From assembly GCA_000004695.1 (NCBI GenBank), contig CM000151.3, forward strand, positions 6,176,001-6,240,000: a stretch of 64,000 nucleotides of DNA, in the 5' to 3' direction. The notes beneath the pieces are model-generated. The model was not told where the DNA came from and searched no databases. It saw only the letters and a list, made by a program, of their open reading frames with translations. This document shows positions 40,012 through 43,928 of this stretch, one piece after another (positions within the stretch are counted from its first letter, which is position 1; each line of letters opens with the position of its first letter). This DNA is from Dictyostelium discoideum (Eukaryota). The translations under genes and the position numbers were made by a program.

Positions 40012-41418
40012 TTATTTTTTAAAGTTATTAATTTTTTCAATTGAATCAAAGAATGTTGTAATATCAGATTTACCTTTTGAGAGTGGACATAATAATAAAA
40101 TTGATTCATTTTTGAAATAATCATTTTTTGGAATAATATTTGAAATATAATTAATAAATACTGGAGTTGGAGAAATTTCAACAAAAACTACTTTTTCACC
40201 TAAATTATTATTTTCAATATGATTAAATAATCTTTTAATAGTTTGATTAAATTTAACTGGGGCTCTAATATTTTGAAAAAGAAATTCATTATCAAATAAA
40301 AATAAATTATTATTATTATTATTATTATTATTATTATTATTATTATTATTATTATTATTATTATTATTATTATTATTATTATTATTATTATTATTATTAT
40401 TATTATTATTATTATTGTTATTATTATTAATATTGTTATTATTCTGTTGGTTACATATAACATCATTAACAGGAACAACAATATCTTCATTATTCAAAAC
40501 ATTGAAAAATTTAGTATTAACACATGACATCATTGGTACTATATTGGAATTTGATGAGAATAAAGAAATTGGATTTTTTAAATAATTAAATTTTAAATTC
40601 ATAATTTCATTTTTAACGATATCTTGTGAAGAAGTATGAAATGATGTTGGTACTGGTATCATTTTAGTGAAAATACCAGCTTTTGAAATTTCGTTTGATA
40701 GATTTAATAAATCCTTATTTTTACCACCAACAATTATCAAATTATCATAACAATAAATTGCAATTTCGATATTTTCATACTTTTTTAAATAATTTTCATT
40801 AAATTCTTTTTCTGTAATATTAATTTTACAAAATCCATTTTCAAATTTATTAAAATTATTATTATTATTATTATTAATATTATTATTATTGTTATTATTA
40901 TTATTATTATTATTATTATTATTATTATTATTATTATTATTATTATTATTATTATTATTATTATTATTATTTAAAGATAATTTAATTGTTTTCTTTAGAA
41001 GAATTGATCTATTATATAAAATATAACAAGCATTTTCAAAATCTAATAAGCCAGAACAATATGAAGATGCAATTTCGCCACAACTAAGTCCTAAATTAAA
41101 ATTTGGTTCAATACCATAATGTTTTAATAATTTAAATAATGATACTTGAAACATGAATAAAATTGAATGAGATAAACATTGTTCATATAATTCTTCGCTC
41201 TTTGTATCATCGATATTTCTTAATTTTTCAATCATTGAGTATCCAAAATATTTTTCATTCAACCAATTATCAATTCTATCCATTTCATTTTTAAAAATAA
41301 TTTCATTATCATATAATTCTTTTGACATACCACTCCAATGAATAGATTGTCCCATAAATAAAAAAATTATATTTATTTTTTCATTTCCTTTTAAACCTTT
41401 TATATTATTTCCATTCAT
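40012..41418 (-). CDS. Standalone acyltransferase-domain protein (PKS/FAS-type malonyl-CoA:ACP transacylase fold), tandem copy 1, 468 aa
   Basis: AT-domain motifs FLFMGQSIHWSGM (GQGxxWxGM-like) and GLSCGEIASSY (GHSxGE-like, Ser retained), with a downstream PVPTSFHTSS (AFHS-like). Two long poly-Asn insertions encoded by (AAT)n. Confidence 0.65.
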   Translation of the reverse strand: MNGNNIKGLKGNEKINIIFLFMGQSIHWSGMSKELYDNEIIFKNEMDRIDNWLNEKYFGYSMIEKLRNIDDTKSEELYEQCLSHSILFMFQVSLFKLLKHYGIEPNFNLGLSCGEIASSYCSGLLDFENACYILYNRSILLKKTIKLSLNNNNNNNNNNNNNNNNNNNNNNNNNNNNNNNINNNNNNNFNKFENGFCKINITEKEFNENYLKKYENIEIAIYCYDNLIIVGGKNKDLLNLSNEISKAGIFTKMIPVPTSFHTSSQDIVKNEIMNLKFNYLKNPISLFSSNSNIVPMMSCVNTKFFNVLNNEDIVVPVNDVICNQQNNNNINNNNNNNNNNNNNNNNNNNNNNNNNNNNNNNNNNNNNNNNNLFLFDNEFLFQNIRAPVKFNQTIKRLFNHIENNNLGEKVVFVEISPTPVFINYISNIIPKNDYFKNESILLLCPLSKGKSDITTFFDSIEKINNFKK

Positions 41419-41775
41419 TTTTTATAGTATAAAAAAAAGAAAAAAAAAAAAAACAATAATAATAACATTTAAAAAAAAAACATAATAATAATAAATTAAA
41501 AATAAAAAAAAAAACAATTATAATAACATTTTAAAAAAATAGTTTAATTTATTTATTTTAGTAGTTTTAATACACACACAACACCACGAATTCTGAATAA
41601 TAAAAAAAAATTAAGACACTGTTTTTTTTTTTTATAAAAAAAAATTAATTATTAGATTATTAATTCCTTTCTTTTTTCATTTTCATATTTTTTTTATGAA
41701 AATAAAAAAAAAAGAAAGAAAAAAAAAAACAAAATAAAAAATAAAAAATAAAAATGCTTTTTAAAAATTTATTCT

Positions 41776-43062
41776 TTATATTATTTTAAAGTTTTTAAAT
41801 TTTTCAATTGAATCAAAGAATGTTGTAGTATCAGATTTACCTTTTGAGAGTGGACATAATAATAAAATTGATTCATTTTTAAAATAATCGTTTTTTGGAA
41901 TTATATCCAAAATATGATTAATTAATACTGTGGTTGGAGAAATTTCAACAAAAACTACTTTTTCACCTAAATTATTATTTTCAATATGATTAAATAAACT
42001 TTTAATTGATTGATTATATTTAACTGGAGCTCTAATATTTTGAAAAAGATACTCATTATCAAATAAAAATAAATTATTATTATTATTATTATTATTATTA
42101 TTATTATTATTATTATTATTATTATTATTATTATTATTATTCTGTTGGTTACTAATAACATTATTAACAGGAACAACAATAACATCATTATCTTGATTGT
42201 TATTTAAAACATTGAAAAATTTACAATTCACACATGACATCATTGGTACTATATTGGAATTTGATGAAGAAAATAAAGAAATTGGATTTTTTAAATAATT
42301 AAATTTTAAATTCATTATTTCATTTTTAACGATATCTTGTGAAGAAGTATGAAATGATGTTGGTACTGGTATCATTTTAGCAAAAATACCAGCATTTGAA
42401 ATTTCATTTGATAATTTTAATAAATCACTATTTTTACCACCAACCATTATAGAATTATCATCACAATAAATTGCAATTTCAATATTTTTATACTTTTTTA
42501 AATAATTTTCATTAAATTCTTTTTCTGTAATATTAATTTTACATAATCCATTTTCAAATTTATTAATATTATAAATGCAATTATCAATAATATTATTATA
42601 ATTATTATTTTCATTCAAAGATAATTTAATTGTTTTCTTTTGTAGGATTGATCTATTATATAAAATATAACAAGCACTTTCAAAATCTAGTAAACCAGAA
42701 CAATATGAAGATGCAATTTCACCACAACTAATTCCAAAATTATAATTTGGTTTAATACCATAATGTTTTAATAATTTAAATAATGAAATTTGAAACATGA
42801 ATAAAATTGAATGAGATAAACATTGTTCACTTAACTCTTCACTGTTTTTATCATCAATATTTCTTAATTTTTCAATCATTGAATATCCAAAATATTTTTC
42901 ATTCAACCAATTATCAACTCTATCCATTTCATTTCTAAAGATAATTTCATTTTCATATAATTCTTTCGACATACCACTCCAATGAATACCTTGTCCTACA
43001 AATATAAAAATAATATTTACTTTTTCATTTTCTTTTAAACCTTTTATATTATTTTCATTCAT
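41776..43062 (-). CDS. Standalone acyltransferase-domain protein, tandem copy 2, about 428 aa counted from the MNENNIKGL start
   Basis: Near-identical paralog of copy 1: VGQGIHWSGM, GISCGEIASSY, PVPTSFHTSS. It has much shorter Asn tracts. The track ORF is extended upstream by 29 hydrophobic poly-F codons that are probably not coding. Confidence 0.65.
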   Translation of the reverse strand: MNENNIKGLKENEKVNIIFIFVGQGIHWSGMSKELYENEIIFRNEMDRVDNWLNEKYFGYSMIEKLRNIDDKNSEELSEQCLSHSILFMFQISLFKLLKHYGIKPNYNFGISCGEIASSYCSGLLDFESACYILYNRSILQKKTIKLSLNENNNYNNIIDNCIYNINKFENGLCKINITEKEFNENYLKKYKNIEIAIYCDDNSIMVGGKNSDLLKLSNEISNAGIFAKMIPVPTSFHTSSQDIVKNEIMNLKFNYLKNPISLFSSSNSNIVPMMSCVNCKFFNVLNNNQDNDVIVVPVNNVISNQQNNNNNNNNNNNNNNNNNNNNNNNLFLFDNEYLFQNIRAPVKYNQSIKSLFNHIENNNLGEKVVFVEISPTTVLINHILDIIPKNDYFKNESILLLCPLSKGKSDTTTFFDSIEKFKNFKII

Positions 43063-43624
43063 TTTTAATAATAATATGTAAACTTTATTTTTTTTTTTTA
43101 AAAAAAAAAAAACAAAAATAATAATAAAAAAAAAAAACAAAAAAAACAATTATAATAATATTTAAAAAAGGTTTAATTTATAATATATATTTTATTTTAA
43201 TTTATTGTTTTATTACACATACATTTTAACTAATTGTTTTATTACAAACACCACTAATTCTTAATAATAAAAAAAAAAAAAAAATGAAAAAGACATAACC
43301 ACTGGTTATTTTTTAAAAAAAAATCCAAAAAAGATAATATAATATCTTTGAGATATTAAAAAAAAACAAGTAGAAAATAAATAAAAATAAATAAAATAAT
43401 TAATAAATATATTTATAATTTATTTATATTTCTTTCAAATAAAAAAAAAAACTTAATTGATTCATAGTAGAAAAAAAAAAAAAAAAAAAAAATGCTTTTT
43501 AAAAATTTATTCTTTATTTAATTTTAAGGGTGGTTAGATGTAAAAATTTCAGCTTTAATGTGGTGGTTTGTAGACTTTTTTTTTAACTTTTATTTTTTTA
43601 TTTCCTATAAGGCTCCCCTTAATT

Positions 43625-43928
43625 TTATTTAAAGTTTTTAAATTTTTTAATTGAATCAAAGAATGTTGTAGTATCAGATTTACCTTTTGAGAGTGGACAT
43701 AATAATAAAATTGATTCATTTTTAAAATAATCATTTTTTGGAATAATATTTAAAATATGATTAACTAATACTGGAGTTGGTGCAATTTCAACAAAAACTA
43801 CTTTTTCACCTAAATTGTTATTTTCAATATGATTAAATAAACTTTTAATTGATTGATTATATTTAATTGGAGCTCTAATATTTTGAAAAAGATATTCATT
43901 ATCAAATAAAAATAAATTATTATTATTA
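43625..43928 (-). CDS. Standalone acyltransferase-domain protein, tandem copy 3. Only the C-terminal about 100 codons are present; the 5' part is lost in the assembly gap
   Basis: The sequence 43640..43920 is about 95% identical to the 3' ends of copies 1 and 2, down to the stop and the downstream TTTAAAAATTTATTCTTTAT motif. Confidence 0.6.

Follow-up and report, generated by a model that had tools for sequence, protein, structure and literature searches.

A tandem array of free-standing acyltransferase-like genes in Dictyostelium discoideum, derived from a polyketide synthase and possibly acting in trans on acyl thioesters

In the acyl hydrolases of polyketide synthases of the trans-acyltransferase type (trans-AT PKSs), the catalytic Ser is preceded by Ala, Ser, or Val and not by the His that is strictly conserved in acyltransferases (ATs) (PMC11775670). 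One such enzyme, PksD, has a G-S-S-L elbow, and its His71 lines the acyl pocket, with the H71A substitution abolishing hydrolysis; the absence of an Arg (Gln124 in PksD; Gln or His) is diagnostic of acyl hydrolases (PMC11775670). AT-like domains of polyunsaturated fatty acid (PUFA) synthases that carry GLSLG for GHSLG are thioesterases that do not complement fabD and need their Ser-His pair (PMC8003026). In a PKS AT of Toxoplasma gondii (TgPKS2), a Gln-to-His change at the second Gln of the GQGxQ motif abolishes malonyl-CoA turnover, and the reverse change restores it (PMC9301873). The PKSs of the amoeba Dictyostelium discoideum (DdPKSs) are described as having their own AT domain, a C-terminal off-loading domain is found in just 21 of 40 of them, and Pks16 is believed to serve as the main fatty acid synthase (FAS) (PMC12828403). 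Here, we describe a tandem array of free-standing AT-like genes in a 64,000-nucleotide window of the D. discoideum AX4 reference (GCA_000004695.1; contig CM000151.3, positions 6,176,001 to 6,240,000 of the forward strand) and compare its products with these systems. Coordinates below are those of the window.

The array consists of three head-to-tail AT-only genes, all on the minus strand, of which two are intact and the third is truncated by an assembly gap. Copy 1 (40012-41418) is an intact open reading frame (ORF) of 468 amino acids with a GLSCGE nucleophile elbow (PF00698 E = 6e-21). Copy 2 (41776-43062) is likewise intact, with 428 amino acids from its ATG and a GISCGE elbow (E = 1.5e-23); a 457-amino-acid ORF starting at TTG was rejected as a mere mechanical upstream extension. 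For copy 3 (43625-43938), the window holds the stop codon (TAA, 43625-43627) and the last 103 codons, and the 5' 913 nt lie inside the gap. The translations of copies 1 and 2 are identical to those of 468- and 428-amino-acid genes called in a gapless D. discoideum assembly (GCA_054883475.1), and the copy 3 fragment is identical to the C terminus of a 408-amino-acid gene at the collinear locus of that assembly (L003 10001-11227, on a 4.9-Mb contig). The original prediction, made from the letters of this DNA, had proposed at least three tandem genes, each encoding an AT domain alone with its own stop codon, and had singled out the motifs GQ[SG]IHWSGM, G[LI]SCGE, and PVPTSFHTSS. All of these motifs were found in the translated copies, each ORF has its own stop codon and no ketosynthase (KS) or acyl carrier protein (ACP) domain, and the copy count stands as two intact genes plus the C-terminal part of a third in the window and as three genes in the gapless assembly. 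No further AT-like sequence beyond the three copies was found by tblastn across the window, and tRNA and Rfam scans gave no match to RNA genes in the array.

Membership in the acyltransferase family, which had been proposed for all three ORFs, was borne out by HMMER: copies 1 and 2 scored 75.7 and 84.2 bits, respectively, against PF00698 (Acyl_transf_1), above the cut-off of 32.7. The copy 3 fragment of the window, taken alone, misses the Pfam threshold (E = 0.13), but it is the C terminus of a full AT gene in the gapless assembly. Scores against the fabD equivalog TIGR00128 (52.4 and 58.9 bits) were far below its cut-off of 260.9. The best solved relative of copy 2 is the AT region of D. discoideum Pks16 (residues 546-868; PDB 9nju; E = 1.2e-37), followed, among solved proteins matched by sequence, by PksD, an acyl hydrolase of Bacillus (8avz; E = 6.2e-19). 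An AlphaFold2 model of copy 2 (predicted local distance difference test score [pLDDT], 70.6; predicted template modeling score, 0.74) has the two-subdomain AT fold, with pLDDT below 50 only in the two Asn-rich loops and one short loop. Foldseek searches with this model also ranked the Pks16 structure first (E = 6.7e-22), and the top 50 matches were all AT or acyl hydrolase structures.

We ran an exhaustive profile search of 1.84 billion representative proteins, which gave 31,932 matches. The best-scoring single AT domains (245 to 324 bits each) sit in PKS-sized proteins of 1,272 to 2,973 amino acids, and the four whose source was checked were from Dictyostelium; ATs of multimodular PKSs scored 100 to 145 bits each in the same search. 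All free-standing relatives came from group-4 Dictyostelium (D. discoideum, D. cf. discoideum, D. citrinum, D. dimigraforme, D. firmibasis, and D. purpureum). In a neighbor-joining tree (342 columns, 200 bootstraps), the array was monophyletic (95%), all free-standing ATs without the GHS histidine formed one clade (93%), and two free-standing proteins that keep GHSFGE were the sister of that clade (82%). The original prediction had left the relationship to the Dictyostelium PKS ATs to such a phylogeny, and here the clade, with the whole free-standing group, nests among them. The array genes are thus derived from the AT of an iterative PKS of Dictyostelium. In the simplest history, an AT would have been cut out of a PKS gene once, in the group-4 ancestor, after which its active site was remodelled once, the genes dispersed, and tandem amplification then took place repeatedly. 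Bacterial transfer was considered as an origin and rejected, as the best single ATs are in PKS-sized proteins (the four checked being from Dictyostelium) and the best free-standing relatives are all from Dictyostelium.

Overall, these proteins form an unstudied, group-4-restricted clade of free-standing AT-like proteins present at at least three loci. In one D. discoideum assembly, a distance of about 70 kb separates the array from a second free-standing cluster (L009 6386-11053), which comprises three genes, including the orthologue of AX4 Q552M0, and a third, of four genes in tandem, is on another D. firmibasis chromosome (L010 5108-11143). In the literature, we found no published study of free-standing Dictyostelium AT-like proteins, including by the name Q552M0. 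This AX4 protein, itself free-standing and AT-like, carries the misnomer “beta-ketoacyl synthase family protein.” Being of low complexity, these proteins were recovered only patchily by word-indexed homology searches (12 and 3 matches).

The active-site residues of the array can be followed codon by codon on the minus strand. The copy 2 nucleophile elbow, G-I-S-C-G-E, is at 42718-42735, with Ser112 at 42727-42729, and the copy 1 elbow occupies the same motif position at 41074-41091. The GQGIH of copy 2 (42982-42996; GQSIH in copy 1, 41338-41352) keeps the oxyanion Gln24 and has His27 for the second Gln of GQGxQ. The catalytic His238, in an SFHTS motif, is at 42349-42351 (His261 at 40636-40638 in copy 1). 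Arg137, which is 25 residues past the Ser at the malonyl-carboxylate-binding position, is kept (42652-42654; copy 1 equivalent, 41008-41010). Finally, His84 (42811-42813; copy 1 equivalent, 41167-41169) replaces a Gln that is invariant in PKS ATs. In an alignment (A1) of clade members that are just 33 to 41% identical, G23, Q24, H84, S112, G114, E115, R137, F237, H238, T239, and S240 are invariant, and the malonyl-specificity motif xFHS is present as SFHTS in all array copies.

Comparison with other ATs set this signature apart. At position 111, directly before the nucleophilic Ser, 24 of 24 clade members have I, L, V, C, M, A, or F, and at least 402 sampled ATs have H; the replacement of the GHSxG histidine with retention of the Ser, first read from the array alone, is thus true of every clade member. 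Among columns conserved in both groups, the clade and the Dictyostelium PKS ATs differ at just two. Position 84 is His in all 13 clade representatives and Gln in all 14 PKS ATs, as also in outgroups and the GHS-type free-standing proteins, and position 80 is Gln in the clade and Pro in the Dictyostelium PKS ATs. We sampled about 470 AT domains (the best 150 of the 31,932 profile matches plus the family) for the residue triplet at positions 84/111/137. Gln-His-Arg was found in 402 of these domains, and the combination of His84, a non-His residue 111, and Arg137 occurred only in free-standing Dictyostelium proteins and in none of the approximately 440 PKS-embedded ATs sampled. Of 409 embedded ATs, 400 have a Gln as the second Gln of GQGxQ; the array proteins all have H there [GQ(G/S/C)IH], and other clade members have C, F, I, or Q. 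Counting residues along the HMMER alignment, His84 aligns with PksD chain residue 74 (His71 in the numbering of the paper) and Arg137 aligns with PksD Gln124. As aligned, the clade shares two features of bacterial acyl hydrolases and fails the diagnostic one, the loss of the Arg.

Among described systems, the cis-AT of Pks16 is the closest by sequence and fold, having in common with the window proteins the Gln, Ser, Arg, and FH motif and a cis-AT-type C-terminal strand and helix. The window proteins differ in being free-standing, with no KS-AT linker, KS, or ACP, and the changes from Pks16 to them are GHSFGE to G(I/L)SCGE, AQP to SHS, GQGPQ to GQGIH, and the addition of Asn tracts in two loops. 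Acyl hydrolases of the PksD/PedC type resemble the window proteins in their free-standing AT fold, the non-His residue before the Ser, the His at the His71 position, and a C-terminal extension. In contrast to them, the window proteins keep the malonyl-binding Arg, are eukaryotic, derive independently from a cis-AT, and are not beside a trans-AT PKS; moreover, PksD retains the second Gln of GQGxQ, which the window proteins have lost.

Other AT-fold enzymes share parts of the signature. The AT-like domain of subunit B of the Thraustochytrium PUFA synthase has an aliphatic residue for the GHS His, namely, GLSLG where copy 1 has GLSCG and paralogues have GLSLGE or GISLGE. The likeness concerns the elbow motif and the Ser-His pair. 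That domain lies within a megasynthase subunit, whereas the window proteins are free-standing and have 408 to 468 amino acids. FabD/malonyl-CoA:ACP transacylase and the trans-ATs PksC and DisD are likewise free-standing, with the same fold and Ser-His dyad, the Arg 25 residues past the Ser, and xFHS; the window proteins differ from these in lacking the GHS His and two conserved Gln residues, in falling far below the fabD cut-off, and in originating from a eukaryotic PKS and not from a type II FAS. The natural “off” variant TgPKS2 AT3 has the same His for the second Gln of GQGxQ, but it lies within a modular PKS and retains GHS, while the window proteins have two further substitutions and this His is not common to the whole clade.

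We propose, with a probability of roughly 45%, that the array encodes an intact PKS-AT-derived family that acts in trans as a thioester hydrolase or an off-loading or editing enzyme rather than as a malonyl loader. The proteins appear to keep the acyl-enzyme machinery, namely, the nucleophile Ser112, the general-base His238 with its preceding Phe, the oxyanion Gln24, and Arg137. With the dyad, the oxyanion residue, and the Arg all in place, the proteins would still form an acyl-Ser intermediate. Three near-invariant loader positions, on the other hand, seem to have been rebuilt: GQGxQ to GQGxH, the xQP Gln to His84, and GHS to G(I/L/V/C)S. Since three such positions are rebuilt, one of them by a change known to switch off malonyl-CoA turnover, the proteins are presumably not ordinary malonyl loaders. 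Two of the three rebuilt positions would follow the bacterial trans-AT acyl hydrolases, and the GLS-type elbow would be that of the AT-like thioesterase domains of PUFA synthases. With this active site, the proteins may act in trans on acyl- or malonyl-thioesters, carried by ACP or CoA, of the amoeba PKS or FAS enzymes, and their role would be that of a hydrolase or of an off-loading or editing transferase, not that of a canonical malonyl-CoA:ACP loader. Of the two functions suggested in the original prediction, an editing or thioesterase-like one appears to fit the active-site pattern better than that of a canonical trans-AT.

The same syntenic site could be followed in related genomes, where it always lies between a gene of about 1,050 to 1,135 amino acids and a CRAL/TRIO gene. 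It holds one AT copy in D. firmibasis, two in “D. cf. discoideum” ACTFIZ, five in ACTFIY, and three in AX4, its near-twin, and two other “D. discoideum” assemblies, with the three positional copies being orthologous between assemblies. The genes thus form a tandem amplified family, with head-to-tail paralogues, shared flanks, and a copy number that varies among relatives at a syntenic site, and the array grows and shrinks by unequal recombination. Neighboring copies also exchange sequence. Copy 2 of AX4 (41776-43062) is a mosaic in which the 39 sites that separate copy-2-type from copy-3-type sequence show alternating runs (compared with L001, L002, and L003), which indicates gene conversion between neighboring copies. 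Its synonymous divergence (dS) is 0.12 to copy 3, lower than the 0.17 to 0.19 to its positional orthologues.

Selection on these genes is purifying but relaxed, not neutral. The ratio of nonsynonymous to synonymous divergence (dN/dS), estimated by the Nei-Gojobori method over 348 gap-free codons with the Asn tracts excluded, was 0.11 to 0.30 between orthologues, 0.27 to 0.36 in comparison with D. firmibasis (dS of about 0.6), and 0.2 to 0.5 between paralogues. The ratios of 0.11 to 0.36 therefore argue that the copies are not neutral relics. 

Several features of the other assemblies deserve mention. The “Dictyostelium discoideum” assemblies ACTFIW and ACTFIR (L001 and L002) differ from AX4 by a dS of about 0.08 to 0.19 in the AT genes and by 4 to 12% in flanking DNA, and ACTFIT is nearly identical to AX4; the divergence of the former two is far above within-species expectation, and they may be cryptic species or mislabelled isolates. 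For copy 1 of ACTFIR, the annotated model of 329 amino acids is wrong, the ORF being intact in a single frame. The five-unit array of ACTFIY (L006 6671-14410) has frame changes in four units, which may be real pseudogenes or long-read homopolymer indel errors in AT-rich DNA.

A number of observations weigh against a thioester hydrolase, off-loading, or editing role for an intact family. Arg137 is kept, as aligned, whereas its absence is diagnostic of bacterial acyl hydrolases (PMC11775670), and a carboxylated, malonyl-type substrate may therefore still fit the pocket. How His84 and residue 111 are placed with respect to Ser112 is predicted from the alignment only. The array had been thought to stand next to large multidomain PKS genes, but a PKS gene was found neither in the window nor in the 10-kb flanks of the related loci, the two other free-standing AT clusters included. 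The window neighbors are instead genes for CRAL/TRIO, Ras or Roc GTPases, RasGEF, DHHC, Xrn1, a ClC channel, and others. There is therefore no genomic link to a partner synthase at the loci examined, and this tempers our confidence in the functional part of the proposal. With respect to intactness, dN/dS reaches 0.56 to 0.76 in some paralogue pairs and is 0.72 for a recent pair in one species, these ratios being obtained by a simple method from 348 codons of very AT-rich sequence, and frameshifted copies occur in one species, ACTFIY. The exact ORF products are present only as gene calls on GCA_054883475.1 and were not found in transcript-derived assemblies or in the AX4 annotation, where one look-up of copy 2 used a sequence with one codon too many. 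As for the retained Arg, the malonyl/palmitoyl transferase (MPT) domain of fungal type I FAS has the AT fold, keeps the Arg, and, embedded in the synthase, also off-loads the finished acyl chain by transfer to CoA. Retention of the Arg is therefore compatible with a product-release role, and by analogy it may leave room in the Dictyostelium proteins for a carboxylated substrate or an MPT-like dual role.

A broader form of this proposal, which we put forward as doubtful, is that the family represents an independently evolved eukaryotic class of trans-acting acyl-thioester hydrolases or off-loaders. A PKS cis-AT would have converged on the bacterial acyl hydrolases through a “relocation” of the His (GHS to GxS and xQP to xHP) and would now serve the approximately 19 of 40 Dictyostelium PKSs that lack an off-loading domain. 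[quoted passage not shown]

We considered whether the proteins might instead be malonyl-CoA:ACP transacylases of the canonical trans-acting kind, delivering extender units to the carriers of PKSs or of type II FAS. Ser112, His238, Gln24, Arg137, and the malonyl-type xFHS motif (SFHTS) are all kept, and relatives bear the UniRef label [quoted passage not shown] However, the GHS histidine, strictly conserved in ATs (PMC11775670), is missing in every clade member, the second Gln of GQGxQ is changed to His, the change that abolishes malonyl-CoA turnover in AT2 of TgPKS2 (PMC9301873), and the invariant Gln of xQP is also His. The scores of 52 to 59 bits against TIGR00128, with its cut-off of 260.9, point in the same direction, and there is no obvious need for such a loader, since the DdPKSs are described with their own AT domain (PMC12828403). 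We therefore regard a loading function as unlikely.

It is also conceivable, if less probable still, that these are pseudoenzymes, either without catalysis or turned to another purpose, such as regulation by binding to ACP or PKS, with the AT fold serving only as a scaffold. The alteration of three canonical AT positions, the inactivity of the natural Q-to-H variant TgPKS2 AT3 (PMC9301873), and the tolerance of long Asn tracts in loops could all be accommodated in this way. Yet the Ser, His, Arg, and oxyanion Gln are invariant among proteins with 33 to 41% identity, which would be unexpected if catalysis were dispensable, and His84 is itself invariant, suggesting that it gained a catalytic or pocket role as in PksD.

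A decay scenario, in which the copies are fragments of PKS genes persisting as tandem pseudogenes without function, would account for the paralogue ratios of up to 0.56 to 0.76, the frameshifted ACTFIY copies, the failure to find the exact products in the AX4 annotation or transcript-derived assemblies, and the hypervariable Asn tracts. Set against these are full-length open frames at all three positions in four assemblies, orthologue dN/dS of 0.11 to 0.36, including the D. firmibasis comparison at a dS of about 0.6, the invariance of the catalytic residues, and the maintenance and amplification of the family at at least three loci across group-4 species, while the ACTFIY frameshifts may be long-read homopolymer errors. 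We thus consider decay improbable.

That one gene was misassembled into a tandem structure, named in the original prediction as an outcome that would overturn it, has a negligible chance of being true: the array does adjoin an assembly gap and the contig breaks within a trinucleotide repeat, but the copies are 8 to 14% apart in nucleotides (dS, 0.11 to 0.16), and the same three positional copies with copy-specific substitutions occur in four independent assemblies on multimegabase contigs.

The gap itself (43939-44038, no strand) could be filled. It consists of 100 N by count, not the 110 N originally given, and it replaces 2,582 bp (L003 8332-10913). Locus L003 is 99.3% identical to the window over 33572-43938 and 99.8% identical over 44039-51998, and in the gapless assembly the missing sequence runs through 1,372 nt of the 3' end of the neighbor gene and a 297-bp spacer into copy 3, of which it holds the first 913 nt. 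Copy 3 is complete there as a 408-amino-acid gene, and copies 1 and 2 at that locus translate identically to those of the window. The true copy number had been expected to be higher; since this near-identical gapless locus, collinear on both sides, fills the gap with only the remainder of copy 3 and the end of the neighbor gene, the array has exactly three copies. The gap in the AX4 reference is thus closable with 2.58 kb of sequence that contains one further AT gene and a neighbor gene end and no extended array. The neighbor gene (44039-47200, minus strand) loses about 1.37 kb of its 3' end to the gap; in the gapless assembly it encodes 1,052 amino acids, is Asn-rich, and has no Pfam match. 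The window ORF at 44147-46009 is only part of this gene, in which there is seemingly a GTAAGT-type intron at about 44100-44215.

The repeat unit is only partly as first described. In self-BLAST, 39953-41552 matched 41726-43181 with 86 to 92% nucleotide identity and 41774-42095 matched 43618-43938 with 95% identity, and the distance from one stop codon to the next is first 1,764 nt and then 1,849 nt. A unit of about 1.75 kb, covering coding and intergenic sequence, had been proposed; the coding sequence does repeat, together with about 60 nt 3' of the stop codon and about 130 nt 5' of the ATG, but the rest of each spacer is unalignable AT-rich sequence in a window with 22.7% G+C. The 5' flank of copy 1 (41419-41552, minus strand), which covers the ~130 nt upstream of the ATG and matches 43063-43181 upstream of copy 2, is probably a shared 5' untranslated region or promoter-proximal sequence. 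The 3' flank of copy 1 (39953-40011, minus strand) matches 41726-41775 downstream of copy 2. Just downstream of the copy 3 stop codon is a unique and relatively G+C-rich insert of about 85 nt (GGGTGGTTAGATG...AGGCTCCCCT; 43528-43612), bracketed by copies of the 3' flank motif that the units share. This insert is missing from units 1 and 2, is single copy in the window, and gave no tRNA or Rfam match.

The Asn tracts, encoded on the minus strand and seen as (ATT)n on the plus strand, occur at two fixed sites, which are disordered in the copy 2 model (residues 150-164 and 285-333). In copy 1, the first tract (40855-40971) is (ATT)7 plus (ATT)26 and encodes 39 residues, 38 of them Asn (amino acids 150-188), and the second (40306-40416) is (ATT)37 and encodes 46 residues, 45 of them Asn (amino acids 326-371). 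Copy 2 lacks the first tract, and its equivalent of the second (42073-42141), (ATT)23, encodes 23 Asn (amino acids 308-330). The earlier estimate of about 40 and 25 Asn in copy 1, both short in copy 2, was therefore right about length differing between copies and wrong in the figures, the real lengths being 39 and 46 in copy 1 and 23 Asn at the second site in copy 2. A 96-amino-acid poly-Ile ORF at 40200-40490 (minus strand) was discarded as a gene candidate, since it is what the copy 1 (AAT)n repeat yields in a different reading frame. In copy 3, the contig breaks in the start of a tract (43916-43936; [ATT]7) that has 11 Asn in the gapless assembly. Because this tract has just 11 Asn, the AX4 contig break in it more probably reflects paralogue ambiguity than repeat length. 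Across copies and assemblies, tracts range from 4 to 46 residues, and there are none in D. firmibasis; they are recent products of (AAT)n slippage, tolerated in surface loops.

Two further observations concern the surroundings of the array. The Sec14-like, lipid-binding CRAL/TRIO gene (38900-39784, plus strand) is its immediate neighbor on the opposite strand in every species examined. Elsewhere in the window, the ORF at 6669-8438 is identical to DDB_G0276009 (peptidase A2 domain) and that at 9531-10865 is identical to DDB_G0276011 (444 amino acids, with more than 15 near-identical paralogues genome-wide), and together the two look like a transposable-element insertion. Both identities are residue for residue, to AX4 proteins encoded on chromosome 2, which places the array on that chromosome.

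For the biology of the family, the clade offers a natural experiment on the GHS histidine and on the second and xQP glutamines of the AT active site, in which two changes co-occur and are fixed across the clade. For Dictyostelium, a conserved and amplified family of free-standing AT-fold proteins, with an active site that appears to be rebuilt towards the pattern of acyl hydrolases and PUFA thioesterases, provides clonable candidates for trans-acting partners of its PKS and FAS enzymes.

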